From Alphaproteobacteria bacterium (lineage in GTDB: Bacteria > Pseudomonadota > Alphaproteobacteria > UBA828), in contig CAXXVO010000005.1 of assembly GCA_963422645.2 (NCBI GenBank), positions 352,001 to 416,000 of the forward strand: a DNA stretch of 64,000 nt, read 5' to 3'. The notes beneath the pieces were generated by a model, which did no database searches, was not told the origin of the DNA, and saw only the letters and a list, made by a program, of their open reading frames with translations. Made by a program: the position numbers and the translations under genes. Of the stretch, positions 4,895 to 43,985 are shown piece after piece; positions within the stretch are counted from its first letter, which is position 1; the number at the start of each line of letters is the position of its first letter.

Positions 4895-5200
4895 ATGTAC
4901 GAGGGAATGCTGGTCACCATCATCACCATCGCGGGCACGTTCGTGCTGGGCGTGGGCGTGGCCGTGATCGTGCTGACCTGGCTCTGGGGCTGGCGGCCGC
5001 TGCAGCGCCGCGCCTTCCCCTTCATCGACGAGATCGCCGCGACCACGTCCCTGTTCTCGGACTCCCTGAAGACGAAGAACCCCGGCATGCCGCTCGCCAT
5101 CCGCCAGGGGCTGTGGGCGATCGCGTACGCCATCGTCACCGGCATGACGATCCAGGCGCTGCTGGGCCTCGCCGGACAGCTGGCCACGCCGGCCGGGTGA
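4895..5200 (+). CDS. Two-TM membrane protein, candidate holin
   Basis: Two hydrophobic segments; directly upstream of endolysin; GGGAGG SD. Confidence 0.5.
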   Translation: MYEGMLVTIITIAGTFVLGVGVAVIVLTWLWGWRPLQRRAFPFIDEIAATTSLFSDSLKTKNPGMPLAIRQGLWAIAYAIVTGMTIQALLGLAGQLATPAG

Positions 5201-32875: not shown

Positions 32876-34763
32876 GTAACTGCCCAGGTTCTTGCTGTGA
32901 AAATTCTCTGGGATTCGGCACAACGCTACCCACGCGACGCCCGTGTGCTCCTCTGTGGTCGCCGGGTTTCACAGCTCACGATGCCCCTCTTGCGGACTGC
33001 GACCGGTAAGCTACCCCGATGTGGCCCGAAGTCCGCCCGCGCGACGGGCACCGATTTTCATTCTATGGGGTGGTCCAGCACGGCGTCGACCATGATCGTT
33101 TATGAGAATGGCTCCGCTGTTGGAGAACCCGTGCCAGGTGAGCTTACGCGCACTTGACGGTGGCGATGAGCCGATCCGATGGGCTGGTCAGGGCTTCGAT
33201 GATATTCCAGCCCTGCTTTCTGGCGGTGGTGATGACGCTGCGCAGGATGGCGAAGTTCTCGGCCCCCTGCGCGGACCGGAAGCCCCCGGAGATCTTCTGG
33301 CGCAGCTTCATCATCCGAAGGTCGCGCTCGGCCTCGTTGTTCGTGAACCCGACCTCGAGGTCGATCAGGAACCGGAGCACCGCGCATTTGTGGTCGCGCA
33401 GCCTCAAGGCCAGATTGTGACCGATCCTTCGCTTCCGGCGCTTCTTCCTCTTGCCAGGCGAGAACGGTGGTTGGCTCTCGTGAAAGGCCAGCGCATCGGC
33501 GATGATCTCGTCGTATCGGCGCTCGATCAGCGCCACAAGCCTCGCCGGAACGGCGATATCCTTGTCCAGCGCGATGCGGGCGGCGCGATTGGCTCGGCGC
33601 AGGAGCTGCTGCATCCGCCGGGCCCAAGCCTCCCCTTCGATGTCCACCAGCGCCTGCAACTCCCGCAGGTGATGGGCGTTGCACAGGCCGTGCTCCACCC
33701 CTTCCATCGCGAAGTACGGCTTCCAGTGATCGTGCACGACGATGCCGGAGACACCCGAGAGCAGGGCGCCGCGCTTGCCGCTGACCCGGTACGCCGCCAG
33801 CAGCGGCGTGCAGATCACATGAAGCCACTGCGTCTGACCGCCGATCCGCAAGCCGGTCTCGTCCATGTGTTTCACCCGCGCCGTGCCCGCCGCCAGGTCC
33901 TGTATGTGCAAGGCCGCGTCCCGCAGCCGCTCGGCCGCCCTCTCGCTCATCGTCGCCAACGTCGCAGCCGTCACCGGCGCGCCGAAGAGCTCGGCCATCA
34001 CCTGCGACAGCCGATCCTCCGGCAGGAAGTGAGCGTGCTGAAGGTAGACCGCCACCCCGGCAATGCGCGGGCCGTACTGCACCGGCGCCGACACCCCGTC
34101 GGGGAACGCCGCCCGGGTCACCGTCCCGCAATGCCCGCAGCACTTGGCATGCGCCCGGTGCTCGGTCACCTCCAGGGGGCTCGGCTCGGGCAGATCGAAC
34201 ACCTGGCGGGCGACGGGCGTTCCCGCCCTGGCCGCGTCCGAAAGCGGCGAACCGCATCCCTTGCAGGAAGCCGGGACGTGATCCTTCACCCGATCCGGGT
34301 GATCGGCGCGGCGCAGCGTCTTGCCCTTGTGGCCGGGCTGGCCACCGGGCTTGCGGCCCGATTTGCCGCGCAGGCTTCGGGTTCGCCGCTTCGAATTCGG
34401 CTTCCTCAGCCCATCGCTCGAAGGCGGCTTGCCGCTGTTGCCGCTGTTGAGGCCGAGACGGCGCTCCAACTCCTCGATGCGCTCGACGAGACGCGCGACT
34501 TGCTCTTCCAGCCGCGCGTTCTGCTGCCGAAGCCAGGCATTTTCCTCCCGAAGCCGGGCGTTCTCCTCCTCCAGGCGGGCGATCTTCTGCGCGGGCGTTT
34601 CGGGCGCTGCTCCCGTCGAAGGGCCGCGCGGCGACTCGGGATTGCTCATGTCGTTGTTGAGTCATTTCCCGAAATTCCCGTCAAGCCCTTTCCACCAACT
34701 CCGAACGAGAAACGCCTCAATCCACTGGCCCAAAATGACAAATCAGACGACCTGGGCAGTTAC
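32876..34763 (-). mobile_element. IS66-family element, single-ORF (ISBst12-like)
   Basis: 14-bp IR GTAACTGCCCAGGT; 8-bp TSD AGTCCTTC at 32868-32875 and 34764-34771. Confidence 0.95.
33144..34649 (-). CDS. IS66 transposase
   Basis: Coiled coil, NS.NS.KPPSSD, Zn-finger, DETG, VHD, CNAHHLREL, TNNEAERDLR. Confidence 0.95.
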   Translation of the reverse strand: MSNPESPRGPSTGAAPETPAQKIARLEEENARLREENAWLRQQNARLEEQVARLVERIEELERRLGLNSGNSGKPPSSDGLRKPNSKRRTRSLRGKSGRKPGGQPGHKGKTLRRADHPDRVKDHVPASCKGCGSPLSDAARAGTPVARQVFDLPEPSPLEVTEHRAHAKCCGHCGTVTRAAFPDGVSAPVQYGPRIAGVAVYLQHAHFLPEDRLSQVMAELFGAPVTAATLATMSERAAERLRDAALHIQDLAAGTARVKHMDETGLRIGGQTQWLHVICTPLLAAYRVSGKRGALLSGVSGIVVHDHWKPYFAMEGVEHGLCNAHHLRELQALVDIEGEAWARRMQQLLRRANRAARIALDKDIAVPARLVALIERRYDEIIADALAFHESQPPFSPGKRKKRRKRRIGHNLALRLRDHKCAVLRFLIDLEVGFTNNEAERDLRMMKLRQKISGGFRSAQGAENFAILRSVITTARKQGWNIIEALTSPSDRLIATVKCA

Positions 34764-39111: not shown

Positions 39112-39690
39112 TCAGCTCCGCCAGGTGGCCGCTTCGCCGGCATCGATCTCCTGCTCCTCCAGCTGAGCACCGGCGTAGCGTCGGTTGGCCTCGCCCAAGG
39201 CATCGCGCAGGGCCTTCACCAAACTTGCACGCTCCTCCGGCGCGAGGAATGGGCCGATGATGAGCGAGCGGCCGTGCGAGGTGAGGATGATCTGGCTGTG
39301 GTGCTCCACCGGCTCGTCAAGGGCAACGCGGAGCCAGTAGGGGTTGAAGCGCCATTCCGTCGTGCGGCCGTTGGGCGCGATGCGCCGGACCACGACTTCG
39401 TCTGGGGTTACGCGGATGGTCTCCCGCAGGCGACCGGAGCGATAGCTCAGCCGGAATGCGAGATAGAGCAGCACGATGTCGAGGCCGAAGAAGCCGAATA
39501 CCGGCCACGCACCTTGCAGCAGAAAATAGGTGCCAAGGCCGACGCTGACCACGACCACGCAGGTCATGACCGTGAGGAAGCCCGCGCGCCCCAGCGAGCG
39601 GTTGGGCGCGAGCACCGCATCGAAGAGCGCCGGCGCATCGGGCTTCTCGTGCTGGGCTGGTGTGTCCGGCCCGCACGGGGAGGAGGTCAT
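39112..39690 (-). CDS. DUF2244 membrane protein
   Basis: L.PNRSL...GF, GAWPVFGFFGLD, IG.FL...ER. Confidence 0.85.
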   Translation of the reverse strand: MTSSPCGPDTPAQHEKPDAPALFDAVLAPNRSLGRAGFLTVMTCVVVVSVGLGTYFLLQGAWPVFGFFGLDIVLLYLAFRLSYRSGRLRETIRVTPDEVVVRRIAPNGRTTEWRFNPYWLRVALDEPVEHHSQIILTSHGRSLIIGPFLAPEERASLVKALRDALGEANRRYAGAQLEEQEIDAGEAATWRS

Positions 39691-39901
39691 GACTATAGAG
39701 TAATGCCCAAAAAGCGCGGCGGTAAAGCACGACCGGAGAATTCGGCGTATGAGAAGCAAGTAACTGGCCGCAACCCCCTTATTTTGGAGAGTCGTAACTA
39801 CCCAGGTACCCAATCCTGAGTTGAGGACGGTGATTATGGCGGCGGCCGCGGCCTGGTTCTGCCACCGCGATTGGTTCTTGACCTCATAGAGTTGCGGGAC
39901 T

Positions 39902-39936
39902 ATGGACTGCTCTCTCGCGTGACGGGAGCGGTCCAT
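39902..39936 (+). promoter_or_regulatory. Hairpin sequestering SD and start codon of the IS-borne MTase
   Basis: ATGGACTGCTC pairs with GAGCGGTCCAT (one G-U pair); TTGACC at 39878-39883 upstream. Confidence 0.55.
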
Positions 39937-40600
39937 GGGGTATTTCGGCTCGAAGGCGACAGCAGGTCTGTGCCAAGCGCTGATTGCGCTGATGCCGCCG
40001 CACTCCGTCTACATCGAAAGCCACCTTGGGGGCGGGGCGCTGATGAAGCGCAAGCCGCCGGCCGTGCGTTCGATCGGCATCGACCGCGATGCGCAGGCGC
40101 TCGAGGCCTTCGTCTGCGACTACCCGGTCGATCTGGTTCACGGCTGTGCCCATGACTTCCTGGCCTCGTTCCCGTTCCTGGGCCCGGAGCTGGTTTACAG
40201 CGATCCGCCCTATCTGCACGCGACCCGCCGCTCGGCGCAGCGCTACCGCTTCGAGTACGAGGAGGCCGGCCACGTCGCGCTTCTCGCGCTGCTCAAGGCT
40301 CTGCCCTGCCAGGTCATGATCTCGGGCCATCCGTCGGCGCTCTATGACGAGGTGCTGGCGGGATGGCGCCGGCTGGCGCTGCAGGTCACGACCCAGGGTC
40401 TGGTGCGAACCGAGGTCGTCTGGTTCAACTACGCCCCCGACCGGATGCATTGGGCCAGCCACGCAGGCCGGAACTTCACCGACCGCCAGCGCATCAAGCG
40501 CAAGGCAGCCAACTGGGGCCGGCGCTACCAGGCCTTGCCGCCGGGCGAACGCCTCGCCGTGCTCGCCGCCATGATGGCCGTCGAGGCCGAAGACACGTGA
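39935..40600 (+). CDS. Short Dam/D12-like N6-adenine DNA methyltransferase
   Basis: YFGSK start, YIESHLGGG (motif I), IGID, YSDPPY (motif IV), VMISG, TEVVWFNY. Confidence 0.85.
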   Translation: MGYFGSKATAGLCQALIALMPPHSVYIESHLGGGALMKRKPPAVRSIGIDRDAQALEAFVCDYPVDLVHGCAHDFLASFPFLGPELVYSDPPYLHATRRSAQRYRFEYEEAGHVALLALLKALPCQVMISGHPSALYDEVLAGWRRLALQVTTQGLVRTEVVWFNYAPDRMHWASHAGRNFTDRQRIKRKAANWGRRYQALPPGERLAVLAAMMAVEAEDT

Positions 40601-42135
40601 CGGTGTCGCACTGGCACGAAGACCTCGCCGCCCGTAACGAGGCCTTCTGCTGCCTGAAGGAGCTTCTCGAGCCATCATCCCTCGCAACCACTGTCGTCGT
40701 TGCCGTCCGGGAATGGGGGCAGGGGCTGCTGCGATCAGCCACCGCGCTCGCCCGGGAAAATGCCGCACTCGAGCAGGAGAACGCGGCCCTGCGCGAGCGC
40801 ATCGCCGAACTCGAGCGCAGCGCGGCCCTCAACAGCACCACAAGCAGCAAGCCCCCCGCCAGCGACGGGCTCAAGAAGAAAAGCGGAGCCCAGAGGCGCA
40901 CCCAAAGCCAGCGCGGAAAGTCCGGCGGGCCCAGTGGCGGCCAGCCCGGCCACAAGGGAACCACCCTCGCGCGGAGCGACAGCCCGGACCGTGTCGTCGA
41001 TCACCACCCCTCCACCTGTTCCGGCTGTGGCGTCGAGCTCTCGGACGCCGACCGGCAAGGCGCGCCCGCCTGTCGGCAGGTCTTCGACGTACCCGAGCCG
41101 CAGCCTCTCGAGGTCACCGAACACCGCGCCCATCGCTGCCTCTGCGGCGCATGCGGCACGCTGACACGAGCCGCCTTCCCGCCGGGCGTCACCGCCCCGG
41201 TCCAGTACGGCCCTCGCATCACCGCTTGGGTGAGTTACCTGCTGTACGCCCAGTTCGTGCCCGAGAAGCGTCTGGCCGAACTCATGAGCGACATCTTCGC
41301 GGTGTCCATCTCCACTGCCACGATCGCCGCCATGGGCCGGCGCACAGCGCAGCGCTTCGAGGGCTTCCTCGACCATGTCGCCGATCTGATCCGCACGCAG
41401 GCGCCGGTCAAGCACCTCGACGAGACCGGCCTGCGTATCGCCGCCCGTACCCGCTGGCTCCATGTGCTGTGCACCCCGTTGCTCACCGTCCTGCGCATCG
41501 GCGAGGGACGCGGCGATGTCGAAAAGAACCTGAAAGGCATCCTCGTCCACGACGACTTCGCCCCCTACTTCACCATCAAGGGCGTCCGCCACGGCGCCTG
41601 CAACGCACATCACCTGCGCGAACTCCAGGCCCTGATCGACATCGAGAAGGAGGAATGGGCGGCGAGCATGCACCGCCTGCTTCAGCGCGCGCGCAGGGCC
41701 GCCCGCTTCGCCCGTGAGAAAGACCGTCAAGTCCCCGCCTCCCTGGTGGCCCGCATCTCAAGGGCATGGGACCGTATCCTCGAAGAAGCCATCGCCTTCC
41801 ATGAGGCCCAACCGCCGCTCCAGATCGCAAAGCGAGGGCGAAAGAAACGCCGCATCGGCCACAACCTCGCGCGCCGCCTTCAAAAGCATAAGGAGGGCTG
41901 CCTGCGCTTCCTCACCGACCTGCGCACGCCGTTCACGAATAACGAGGCGGAGCGTGACATCCGTATGAACAAAGTGCATGAGAAGATCTCAGGCGGCTTC
42001 CGCTCCCTGCAAGGCGCCTGCAACTTCGCCGGAATGCGCAGCGTCATCGTCACCGCTCGAAAGCAAGGCTGGAACATCCTGCAAATCCTGGCGCACCCGG
42101 AACCGATGCAGCTGATCCCTATACTGCGCTCCTGA
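40597..42135 (+). CDS. IS66 transposase
   Basis: GTGA overlap with MTase stop; SKPPASD, DETG, VHD, CNAHHLREL, TNNEAERD. Confidence 0.93.
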   Translation: MTVSHWHEDLAARNEAFCCLKELLEPSSLATTVVVAVREWGQGLLRSATALARENAALEQENAALRERIAELERSAALNSTTSSKPPASDGLKKKSGAQRRTQSQRGKSGGPSGGQPGHKGTTLARSDSPDRVVDHHPSTCSGCGVELSDADRQGAPACRQVFDVPEPQPLEVTEHRAHRCLCGACGTLTRAAFPPGVTAPVQYGPRITAWVSYLLYAQFVPEKRLAELMSDIFAVSISTATIAAMGRRTAQRFEGFLDHVADLIRTQAPVKHLDETGLRIAARTRWLHVLCTPLLTVLRIGEGRGDVEKNLKGILVHDDFAPYFTIKGVRHGACNAHHLRELQALIDIEKEEWAASMHRLLQRARRAARFAREKDRQVPASLVARISRAWDRILEEAIAFHEAQPPLQIAKRGRKKRRIGHNLARRLQKHKEGCLRFLTDLRTPFTNNEAERDIRMNKVHEKISGGFRSLQGACNFAGMRSVIVTARKQGWNILQILAHPEPMQLIPILRS

Positions 42136-42368
42136 ACTTCTCCGGCTCATCCTGAGTATCGCTGTCCTCTCATCTTGTTCGCGACGCGGCGTTCATCATC
42201 CTCTCGCGCTCAAGAGAGTAGGCACCCCCGCGGCGTGGGGGCGTTGACGCAAAAGGAACTGGCTTGTTCCATAAGAGAGAGGGGGTACCTGGGCAGTTAC
42301 GAATACATATCCGTGACGACCTGGTTTTCCGCGGTGCTGAACCAATGAGTAGCACCGCCAGTAGCTAA

Positions 42369-43985
42369 CCTGACCTATTCATCCTGCGTTGCCTTTGGAG
42401 GTCACGATGGCACGGCGTGAGCTTTCCCCCTGACGCCATAGGCATCCGGTTTCGAGCTTTGTTGTGACAGGCGTTGGGGGTTGAGGGGGAGTTCGGGTTT
42501 ACGGGGCACGGCGCCCCGGCGGTCAGGGGCCTGCTGCTGCGAGGCGCCCTGCGAGCAGGCGGAAGAGGGCGGCGTCCGGGCAGGCAGAGGAGAAGTGGAT
42601 ACGGATGCGGGCGGCCTTTTCGATGACGCGGGCACCGATCTTGAGCAGGCGCAGCCTGAGAGTGGCGAACTCGGCGCGGGCGAGCGGCGCAGCACGGGGA
42701 ATGGCGTCGCGCAGGGCGAGCATGAGCCAGTAGGCGCCGGTGTGCAGGACCAGCCTGAGCTGGTTGGCGAGCGGGCTTTGGCAAGAGGTCCGGTCCGAGG
42801 CGAGCTGGCCCTTGTGCAGCTTGATCAGGTTCTCGGCCTGGCCGCGGGCGCAGTAGAGGACTTCGTAGAGATGGCGGGGCTCGCCGCTGAGCGAGGTGAC
42901 GATATAGCGGGCGTCGAAGCCGCGCGTGCTCGCCTCTAGCCTGGCGACGACCCGGCGTTCGCGGCCCCAGGAGCGGGCGGCGTAGGCGAAGGCGGCGAAG
43001 CTGCGCATCCTGTCTGCGCCGGCCTCGGCGCGGCGCACCTTGAGGTCGTCGGCCACCTCGTAGGCGAGGGCATGCAGCGCGCGATTGCCCGCGAGGCCGA
43101 AGATGTAGTCGACGCCGTTCTCCTCGCACCAGGCCATGGCCTGCGGGCGGCCGTAGTGGGAATCTCCGCGGAAGGTGAGCCGGGTGCGGGGCCAGTGGCG
43201 GCGTATACGGCGGACCAGATGCTTCAGCAGGGTGCGGACCTCAGGCCCGGACGGCGTCTTTCCCGGGCGCAGGAGGACCGCCACCGGCTTGCCGCTCTCC
43301 ACATGGTAGACGTGGACGGGGAGAAAGCAGCGCGTGTCGTAATGGGCGTGGAAGAGCGAGAGCTGCTGGTGGCCGTGCACGGCATCGCAGGTGTCGTCGA
43401 TATCCAGGGTGATGGCGGCGGGAGGGGCGGGAAAGGAGCGGCAGAAGAGATCGACCAGCGCCGCCGTCATGCGCGCCACCTCGATGCGGGACGGTGCGTT
43501 CTCCAGGCGGCTCATGGTCGGCTGCGAGCAGAGCGCGCCCCCGCTCTCCGGCGCCTGGCCCGCGGCGAGCTTGAACAGGGGGTCCGTGCGGAGCGCGTCG
43601 CAGTCGTCGGCATCCTCGTAACCGCAGGCGATCGCCAGCATGCGAAAGCGCAGCATGGCCGAGAGCGAGTGGACCACCTGCGCCTGATTGCGCCGGTCGC
43701 GGATGCAGCCTGCCAGGGTCTCGGCGAGGCGCAAGCGGCGCTCCGCCCCGCGCAACAGGACGAGGCCGCCGTCAGACGAGATCAGGCCACCATCGAAGGC
43801 GGCACTCACCTTCTTGCGTTGGACGCTTGGCAGATCGAAGGGGAGAAGGCTATCGTCGGTCATGGCGGGCGTGGCGTTTTCGTTGTTCGGAGAGGAAGAC
43901 GCTCGGACAACGAATTCCTACCCGATGGCAACGGCTTACGCTACGTCCGCCACCCCAAAATCAGACACGCCGTGAATAATTGGGG
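42369..43985 (-). mobile_element. IS1380-family insertion sequence
   Basis: Imperfect IRs CCTGACCTATTCAT / CCCCAATTATTCAC; 4-bp TSD CTAA at 42365-42368 and 43986-43989. Confidence 0.9.
42523..43863 (-). CDS. IS1380 transposase (DDE_Tnp_1_4)
   Basis: FDGG.ISSDGG, SQPTMSRLEN, LDIDDT, RGDSHY, Y..RG..EN.IK. Confidence 0.93.
   Translation of the reverse strand: MTDDSLLPFDLPSVQRKKVSAAFDGGLISSDGGLVLLRGAERRLRLAETLAGCIRDRRNQAQVVHSLSAMLRFRMLAIACGYEDADDCDALRTDPLFKLAAGQAPESGGALCSQPTMSRLENAPSRIEVARMTAALVDLFCRSFPAPPAAITLDIDDTCDAVHGHQQLSLFHAHYDTRCFLPVHVYHVESGKPVAVLLRPGKTPSGPEVRTLLKHLVRRIRRHWPRTRLTFRGDSHYGRPQAMAWCEENGVDYIFGLAGNRALHALAYEVADDLKVRRAEAGADRMRSFAAFAYAARSWGRERRVVARLEASTRGFDARYIVTSLSGEPRHLYEVLYCARGQAENLIKLHKGQLASDRTSCQSPLANQLRLVLHTGAYWLMLALRDAIPRAAPLARAEFATLRLRLLKIGARVIEKAARIRIHFSSACPDAALFRLLAGRLAAAGP

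Follow-up and report, generated by a model that had tools for sequence, protein, structure and literature searches.

A Dam-fold gene of the Upf31 family, with a conserved promoter, precedes the transposase in an IS66-family insertion sequence and recurs in other insertion sequence families

Introduction

Why should an insertion sequence (IS) carry, ahead of its transposase, a gene that resembles a DNA adenine methyltransferase? The question is raised by a 64,000-nt stretch of an Alphaproteobacteria bacterium (assembly GCA_963422645.2, contig CAXXVO010000005.1, positions 352,001 to 416,000; hereafter the window), in which an IS66-family element lies complete at 39794-42300. It has two long sense-strand open reading frames (ORFs) only, a Dam-like gene of 221 aa and the transposase, and the GTGA at 40597-40600 joins the stop of the first to the start of the second. 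A preliminary description of the window had put forward a complete IS66 with a first-placed DPPY gene overlapping the transposase in this way, and it is borne out by the sequence and by 36 copies in the genome. The common picture of an insertion sequence is of a transposase framed by two ends, its control coming from the host or from tricks in the transposase gene; here the transposase is accompanied by what we read as a regulator gene, descended from a methyltransferase. Our answer, which we hold to be probable, is a portable autorepressor cassette, made up of the first gene and its promoter, that drives and limits transposase expression.

In classical IS66 elements the transposase is preceded by two accessory genes, tnpA and tnpB, and the ISBst12 group is made up of single-gene IS66 elements. 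The inverted repeats of the family begin with GTAA, and its target duplications are 8 bp long. Because the window element has no tnpA or tnpB, we group it with the ISBst12-like single-transposase elements, plus one gene. What is already known separately is IS66 elements, ISs with a methyltransferase passenger, and autoregulation by Upf31, a plasmid protein. The literature searched, in which ISfinder and REBASE were not covered, describes neither this gene inside IS66, IS701 or any IS, nor one accessory cassette common to several IS families.

Results

The gene and its transposase partners

Relatives of the gene were sought by a protein-alignment scan with one genome per species, and 354 were confirmed. 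The 80 loci taken with their flanks are the top-scoring of these and not a random sample, having 66-95% identity and coming from 39 assemblies. At 73 of the 80 the gene lies directly upstream of a DDE transposase, which is an IS66 in 65 cases, an IS701 in 7 and another DDE type in 1, each pair being bounded by inverted repeats and target duplications of its own. The preliminary description had left room for the pairing being a one-off capture, and that is ruled out by the 73 loci. The cassette is found with at least 3 transposase families in Alpha-, Beta- and Gammaproteobacteria, and also in assemblies labelled with five other phyla.

The transposase families were assigned by a Pfam scan of the downstream ORF at 77 of the 80 loci, leaving out L076 (contig edge) and L078 and L106 (broken). 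PF03050 is matched in 27 loci from 9 assemblies that form lineage A, the lineage of the window element (DUF6444 in 25), and in 35 loci of lineage B, the transposase of which is 30-34% identical to the window's. PF13546 (DDE_5) is matched in 7 loci, a weak DDE_Tnp_1-associated match is found in L075, an alpha/beta hydrolase in L099, and no match in 6. Degraded IS66 remains are recognized by tblastn or Pfam in L078, L109 and L110, bringing the IS66 loci from 62 to 65, and the seven DDE_5 proteins are IS701 transposases, scoring 301-313 bits against NF049999 (cut-off 170). Excluded from the counts are L062, L066 and L085, where the first residues of the next ORF resemble the start of the lineage-B transposase, and L106, which agrees with the lineage-B unit in the same genome no further than locus position 4984. 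At L022 (relative G014, gene 67% identical), a reading as the N-terminus of a classical IS66 TnpC was dropped, Pfam giving a weak distal IstB match, and the locus is uncounted.

Two loci with genes 67-68% identical, L099 (766-2722) and L094, keep the promoter motif described below, and no transposase is seen downstream. In L099 the hydrolase gene stands there, and the contig of L094 is short; both loci may represent solo cassettes, or remnants. Nearer to the window element, three other of 61 related genomes have a gene at least 85% identical: G011, which belongs to the same genus (23 matches), G047, from a different family (4 copies), and G004 (1 copy). In each case the gene is found with the same transposase and the same left inverted repeat (IRL).

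The window transposase scores 289.7 bits (E = 3.6e-86, cut-off 180) against NF033517 and 141.6 bits (E = 4.4e-41, cut-off 23.1) against PF03050; it also matches DUF6444, with a sub-threshold match to zf-IS66. Where the downstream transposase frame is uninterrupted, the gap from the gene stop to the transposase start ranges from -7 to +41 nt, and in L058-L061 it is 68 nt to the first start codon taken by the script. The GTGA junction is retained in L031-L041 and L043-L053, in agreement with the proposal of the preliminary description that the gene is integral to the element and coupled to the transposase, and ATGA is found in L071, L072 and L098. The transposase frame is open back to 40363, which made a programmed frameshift fusion of the two genes worth considering. 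That candidate was rejected, and simple coupling is preferred, because of the GTGA and ATGA junctions and because the two genes have separate starts in other lineages.

The ends of the elements and the edges of the cassette

The copies within a genome are units of 2.2-2.8 kb that begin 85-555 nt upstream of the gene and end shortly past the transposase, and multiple copies with target duplications define the ends of the elements in other genomes. Lineage B (IS66-B) has the ends GTAACTACTCACCCCC, and CTCCTGGG and GAACGAGG are examples of its 8-bp duplications. The ends of the IS701 type are CTCGACTTTGTACATTT, with the 5-bp duplications CTAAG, CTTAG, CTCAG, CTGAG and TTCAG, and those of L075 are CAGCAATTCTCATT, with the 9-bp duplication CATTCGATC. 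Between IS families, nucleotide similarity of 72-83% is confined to the gene and a stretch of no more than 57 nt before it, and it ends at the stop codon; as an example, element positions 85-808 match L058 in this manner.

The tree of the gene is a quick maximum-likelihood one with its root and weaker branches uncertain. In it the IS-borne genes group together, with an SH-aLRT of 100, when set against six of nine more distant family representatives; the remaining three, P0124, P0126 and P0144, of unassigned context, fall within that clade. The lineage-B genes are basal and paraphyletic, with L075 nested among them, and 11 lineage-A rows, 6 IS701 rows and 2 rows of lineage B come together in a clade supported at 95. 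This suggests a few transfers of the cassette between IS families. The dN/dS ratio (nonsynonymous to synonymous substitution rates) between lineages is 0.18-0.43, so the gene is under purifying selection.

The promoter and its operator

Upstream of the gene there is a conserved consensus TTGAC-N3-(C)ATAG-N10-CTATGG. As the pattern TTGAC-N2-4-NNTAG-N9-11-CTANN it is found in 73 of the 80 loci, with all the transposase families, at 55-72 nt before the start codon, or at 42 nt in L076, where the start codon is uncertain. The block is gap-free, and none of the 32 distinct sequences departs from TTGAC, TAG or CTA. The layout in the family is that of a -35 TTGACA, a 17-nt spacer and a -10 of TATGGT or TATGCT, with the inverted repeat (C)ATAG/CTAT(G) covering spacer and -10. 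In the window the candidate operator is formed by ATAG (39886-39889) and CTAT (39900-39903) and overlaps the spacer and the -10 in the same way. As the flanking pair of the repeat, 24 sequences have A-T and 3 have G-C, the latter being a compensatory CGTAG/CTACG variant of one clade only.

The site is rare. ATAG-N10-CTAT has one occurrence in the whole window, at 39878-39906, where 0.06 are expected, and all 59 exact CATAG-N10-CTATG sites of the 5.9-Mb genome have the same 20-nt sequence as the promoter site of the element. The suggestion of the preliminary description that the gene acts on the promoter of its own element fits this conserved, operator-bearing promoter. Plasmid homologues outside ISs have the operator repeat in their upstream regions as well, with two occurrences each in L111 and L116 and one in L113, and it is not seen with the same pattern in the plasmid homologues L112, L114, L115 and L117. 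The tandem pair of ATAG-N10-CTATG is at L111:3418-3500 and, in L116, upstream of 1501. Such tandem operators recall the clustered inverted repeats of IncP-1 beta plasmids that are described in the text available of the Upf31 preprint.

Between promoter and gene there is a short leader with a predicted stem-loop, and stem-loops of differing sequence are found at the same leader position in most lineages. The statistics are weak, with a median z of -1.3 and z < -2 in 15 of 39, and RNAalifold on 8 leader sequences gives a slightly positive, unfavourable covariation term of +0.74. The stem-loop may affect translation or transcript stability.

The Dam-like protein and its relation to Upf31

The protein belongs to a family of 5,660 representatives at E<=1e-3, and its scores lie under the Pfam and TIGRFAM cut-offs. 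It has no Pfam match at 0.01, PF02086 giving 12.1 bits under a cut-off of 22, and TIGR00571 ("dam") gives E = 1e-4 and 22.1 bits under a cut-off of 114.85. Among its relatives, 21 of 22 match PF02086 at E<=1, the best at 1.3e-6. The S-adenosylmethionine (SAM) motif HLGGGA is at residues 30-35 and DPPY follows at 90-93; H23, G32, D90, P91, P92 and H113 are invariant in 58 diverse members, and Y93 is nearly so. This suggests that catalysis or base flipping matters.

A profile of the 58 members matches DpnM (E = 1.6e-10), EcoDam and T4 Dam. It aligns residues 2-66 with DpnM 16-78 and residues 82-159 with DpnM 184-266, so that about 100 DpnM residues (79-183, the recognition insert) have no counterpart in the 221-aa protein. 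The AlphaFold model, with a predicted local distance difference test (pLDDT) score of 92.1, shows a Rossmann core together with a pair of C-terminal helices at 181-220. Its top fold matches are EcoDam, DpnM, T4 Dam and Mcbe1 at a TMq of about 0.55, with a Foldseek probability of 1.00 for EcoDam. The insert is missing from the profile and fold alignments alike, as the preliminary description had anticipated in proposing a minimal target-recognition region. The homodimer prediction scores 0.19, the mark being 0.42, and speaks neither for nor against a dimer.

Plasmids account for 196 records, all at <60% identity; 134 of the 196 are conjugative, and the IncP-1 "upf31.0" is among them. None of the plasmid homologues inspected (n=7) lies inside an IS. 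The IS1380-family element ISSp1, beside a 51%-identical Sphingobium plasmid gene, was considered as a further IS family with the cassette and rejected by megablast. Most plasmids have ISSp1 (query 1069-2724) and the gene (query 1-1071) apart from each other, which makes their adjacency here a secondary insertion.

BLASTP aligns residues 1-218 of the window protein with residues 1-222 of Upf31 from pBP136 at 45% identity (E = 8e-68), and the alignment takes in the C-terminal domain. Two sequences line up in register with the operator of pBP136 upf31, TTGACAGCATCG: one is TTGACAGCATAG, found in L066, L087 and L092, and the other is the window's TTGACCTCATAG. In pBP136, CAGCATCG comes directly after TTGA, and this is the operator-like inverted repeat given for Upf31 in the preprint (bioRxiv 10.1101/2024.02.05.579024). 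In the text available of the same preprint (bioRxiv 10.1101/2024.02.05.579024), a 68-bp fragment upstream of upf31 is an active promoter, the full-length hybrid R751/pBP136 Upf31 lowers its own promoter from 4.76 to 0.09 XylE units, about 50-fold, and this autorepression requires the C-terminal domain (residues 173-225). That text also reports that GATC methylation was not found for pBP136 Upf31 and that sequencing of single molecules in real time (SMRT) gave no modification signal for Upf31 in methylation-free Escherichia coli ER2796. The strings "transpos" and "insertion sequence" have 0 occurrences in the preprint (bioRxiv 10.1101/2024.02.05.579024).

The window element and its copies in the genome

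The features of the window are listed in Table 1. An inverted-repeat search gave arms 2 nt longer than 39794 and 42300, and we take these two positions as the true ends because the target duplications of other copies put the ends there. The 18-bp inverted repeats of the preliminary description hold for the window copy, in which IRL and the right inverted repeat (IRR) are identical at 17 of 18 positions, and fail as a consensus, which is 19 nt with 18 of 19 matching, since 35 of 36 copies have an extra C in IRL. It is this single C that is missing from the IRL of the window copy. The repeat reads GTAACT[A/G]CCCAGGTACCC(C).

Table 1. Features of the IS66-family element and of its gene-less relative, in window coordinates
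Feature	Position	Strand	Remarks
Left inverted repeat (IRL)	39794..39811	+	Sequence GTAACTACCCAGGTACCC; ends set by 8-bp target duplications in 22/36 genome copies
Promoter-like element with operator	39878..39906	+	Putative -35 TTGACC at 39878-39883, 17-nt spacer, putative -10 TATGGA at 39901-39906
Predicted 5' leader stem-loop	39907..39933	+	GGGAG Shine-Dalgarno-like run in 3' arm
Upf31-family, Dam-fold (D12-class-like) gene, 221 aa	39935..40600	+	HLGGGA SAM motif, DPPY residues 90-93, C-terminal helices 181-220
IS66-family transposase, 512 aa	40597..42135	+	DUF6444 + zf-IS66 + DDE_Tnp_IS66; GTG start overlaps preceding TGA
Right inverted repeat (IRR)	42283..42300	-	Reverse complement = GTAACTGCCCAGGTACCC
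Comparison IS66 without the extra gene	32876..34763	-	8-bp duplication AGTCCTTC; 499-aa transposase, 60% identical to that of the window element

The 5.9-Mb genome has 36 full-length copies of the element at >=99.7% identity, plus many fragments. Identical 8-bp flanks are found for 22 of the 36. The Dam-like gene is intact in all 36, with three variable sites, no indel and two protein alleles only, and the transposase has 512 or 513 aa in 34. The window element is an active, multiplied insertion sequence, and its features go well past what chance would give. The window copy itself has no target duplication, its flanks at 39786-39793 and 42301-42308 being GGAGAGTC and GAATACAT. These are the exact mirror of the flanks at the copy C9:531722-534228, and the swap points to a reciprocal homologous exchange, by inversion or translocation, between the two copies. 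Two further copies of the element have the flank GGCGTTTC in common with a third.

Uninterrupted full-length copies of the Dam-like gene number 73 in this genome, 50 at >=99% identity and 23 at 80-99%. A second subfamily (e.g., from C3:145112 onward) has the IRL GTAACTACCCAGGTACCCCGCCGCC, a gene of 222 aa about 87% identical to that of the window, and the promoter variant TTGACTGTATAGGTTCTCTCGCCTATG, which occurs 18 times, or 20 counting two single-base variants. In the one copy of this subfamily that was read, the transposase is broken into ORFs of 179 and 417 aa. At least 20 fragments of the element start or stop at element positions 2070-2075 (window 41863-41868), where they abut a common foreign sequence, …TCAGGAAGTCTG / CAGACTTCCTGA…. 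It seems that another IS, having this sequence as its ends, inserts repeatedly at this one place in the transposase gene, or that a chimeric element has spread.

The preliminary description had contrasted the element with a related IS66 without the methylase gene, and that one does consist of a single transposase, with no space for another gene and no tnpA or tnpB. The "accessory-gene slot" that the same description assigned to the gene is thus a positional analogy only, the nearest gene-less element having no tnpA/tnpB to replace. The transposase of the window element has an N-terminal extension of 50 residues (window 40597-40746) that is absent from the 60%-identical gene-less IS66 and is conserved among relatives, whose alignments begin at residue 1, with 76-92% identity.

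Beside the element are an IS1380-family transposase gene at 42523-43863 (minus strand; NF033539 at E = 4.2e-121) and a gene for a DUF2244 membrane protein at 39112-39700 (minus strand). The longest DUF2244 ORF extends into the IS, and the real start is probably further in.

Discussion

A proposed autorepressor cassette

By analogy with the 45%-identical Upf31, we infer that the IS protein would act as that protein does, that expression of the transposase would depend on the cassette promoter, and that methylation or adenine flipping at the operator may play a role. An ISBst12-like IS66 would have taken up a 5' cassette in three parts, namely an operator-bearing promoter, a short leader and a gene of the Upf31 family. 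The cassette promoter would transcribe both genes, and the transposase, if translated only via coupling to the end of the first gene, would be made in smaller amounts. The first protein would bind the operator (C)ATAG-N10-CTAT(G) over the -10 and repress the whole operon, so that transposase output would drop as the protein builds up, including protein from other copies in the cell, and a burst of transposase would follow the entry of a copy into a cell without the protein. Because control of this kind needs nothing from a particular transposase, the same cassette could be joined to IS66 (two lineages), IS701 and another DDE type. We offer, more tentatively and with somewhat less conviction than would make it probable, the extension that a Dam-fold mobile regulatory cassette has moved as a promoter-to-stop unit between unrelated IS families, giving them a shared circuit that senses copy number and fires in naive cells. 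Adenine flipping or site-specific methylation at the operator could also serve as epigenetic memory.

Several observations weigh against the autorepressor cassette and keep our confidence moderate. Invariant SAM-binding and DPPY residues are unexpected for a pure repressor. The genome holds >70 copies, so any brake is leaky. Many of the 80 loci are copies within one genome, so the counts are not independent. The strict promoter motif is missing in 7 of the 80, mostly replaced by near variants. Covariation of the operator is weak, coming from one clade and 3 cells and being reached in 15 of 500 shuffles, and conservation of the right half-site could in part be just that of the -10 hexamer. The -10 of the window lineage (TATGGA/TATGGG) is poorer than in other lineages, and a sigma-70 scan of 39700-42400 returned no promoter-like site, its one weak terminator-like site being on the minus strand. 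The scan misses 39878-39906 because the second hexamer of the window, TATGGA, ends in A, and with no site found by it the promoter assignment rests on conservation and on homology to upf31p.

Possible alternatives: cargo, switch or end recognition

Of the other explanations the one that survives best is that the gene is cargo, an active orphan N6-adenine methyltransferase that, through methylation of the DNA of the cell, shields the vehicles and host of the element against restriction, or against losing a restriction-modification system, and has no part in the control of transposition. The Dam/DpnM-like fold and motifs speak for it, as do the DPPY and glycine-rich SAM motif invariant in 58 members and the 46-56%-identity relatives among the transfer genes of conjugative plasmids (134 of the 196 plasmid records). 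A benefit independent of the transposase would also explain uptake by several IS families. Set against these are the missing recognition insert and the fact that the sole homologue tested showed, in the preprint text available, neither SMRT-detected methylation nor GATC methylation (bioRxiv 10.1101/2024.02.05.579024). Cargo would not need the first place in the operon, coupling to the transposase, or a promoter with an operator that travels along, and the incoming DNA would not be protected in time by methylation that arises in the new host. We consider the cargo model weaker than the autorepressor cassette, and unlikely.

Somewhat less likely again is a self-contained switch in the style of IS10 and Dam, in which the protein methylates the adenines of the operator half-sites (ATAG/CTAT), the promoter being off with full methylation and on in the hemimethylated state just after replication; this would be a special case of promoter control, one requiring catalysis. 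The invariant TAG and CTA cores do have adenines on both strands and overlap the -10, and the catalytic residues are invariant. A very rare long site would escape SMRT motif calling, and the expression vector used for Upf31, as far as the text available of the preprint goes, may presumably lack the operator. There is precedent in the control of IS10, IS50 and IS903 by Dam, as given in the portion available of PMC9296519. On the other hand, the half-sites are 15 bp apart centre to centre, methylation there is hypothetical, and in the portion of the preprint at hand binding alone explains the autorepression by Upf31 (bioRxiv 10.1101/2024.02.05.579024).

Methylation of a GGTACC in both terminal inverted repeats, controlling end recognition, was suggested by the sites at 39805-39810 and 42284-42289 of the window element, the IRL of the close relatives L012-L029 and L045 also having one, and this is very improbable and contradicted by comparison, in that L045/L047 (gene 89% identical) have GGTACC in IRL only and an IRR, GTAACTACCCAGGTCTG, without it, the lineage-B, IS701-type and L075 ends, belonging to proteins 66-85% identical to the window's, have none, and half of the site is ordinary repeat sequence because CCCAGGT is also present in the inverted repeat of the gene-less IS66.

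Relation to known systems

With Upf31 of the IncP-1 beta plasmids (pBP136, R751) the IS protein shares 45% full-length identity, HLGGG and DPPY, basic C-terminal helices and, for both, a predicted Dam-like fold; the operator register and the distance of about 62 nt from TTGAC to the start codon are likewise alike. The difference is that upf31 belongs to the plasmid backbone, where it stands as a single gene in the interval from trb to tra, outside any IS and with no transposase after it, and that the partner proposed for it in the available preprint text, KorB, is not carried by these ISs. The ISBst12-type IS66 elements, to which the gene-less relative at 32876-34763 belongs, have the same transposase with DUF6444 and zinc finger, the same GTAA-type repeats and 8-bp duplications, and no tnpA/tnpB, and they differ from the window element in its extra 5' gene with a promoter of its own and in the N-terminal extension of its transposase. 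Dam, DpnM and T4 Dam (D12-class, alpha-group) share the Rossmann core, the order of motifs and DPPY, whereas the IS protein is without their recognition insert of roughly 100 residues and has two added C-terminal helices.

Element-encoded proteins that lower the expression or activity of the transposase are known in IS1 (InsA) and Tn5 (Inh). The proposed logic is the same, with a protein of the element in excess over the transposase, lowering it also in trans; the fold is unrelated, and here there is a separate gene with a methyltransferase fold, exchangeable between IS families. Passenger-carrying elements ("transporter IS"), including some with methyltransferase passengers such as IS220 of the IS1380 family, are described in the part available of PMC11891212. 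They resemble the window element in having a non-transposase gene inside the inverted repeats, which in the window element is copied along with it, and differ in that here one orthologous cassette with its own operator is at the same 5' position in at least 3 transposase families. That recurrence points towards a role in the control of the element itself rather than to mere cargo.

Meaning for insertion sequences and for Upf31

For annotation, the 73 intact "DNA adenine methylase" genes in one 5.9-Mb genome are parts of ISs, and neither host epigenetic machinery nor remnants of restriction-modification systems. If the cassette is an autorepressor, it would offer a test system for self-limiting mobile elements, and for how a methyltransferase fold becomes, or doubles as, a sequence-specific repressor. 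If the cassette has indeed moved as a regulatory unit between IS families, no earlier accessory module is known to be common to several of them, and the plasmid Upf31 and the unexplained repeats of the IncP-1 plasmids would gain a wider meaning.

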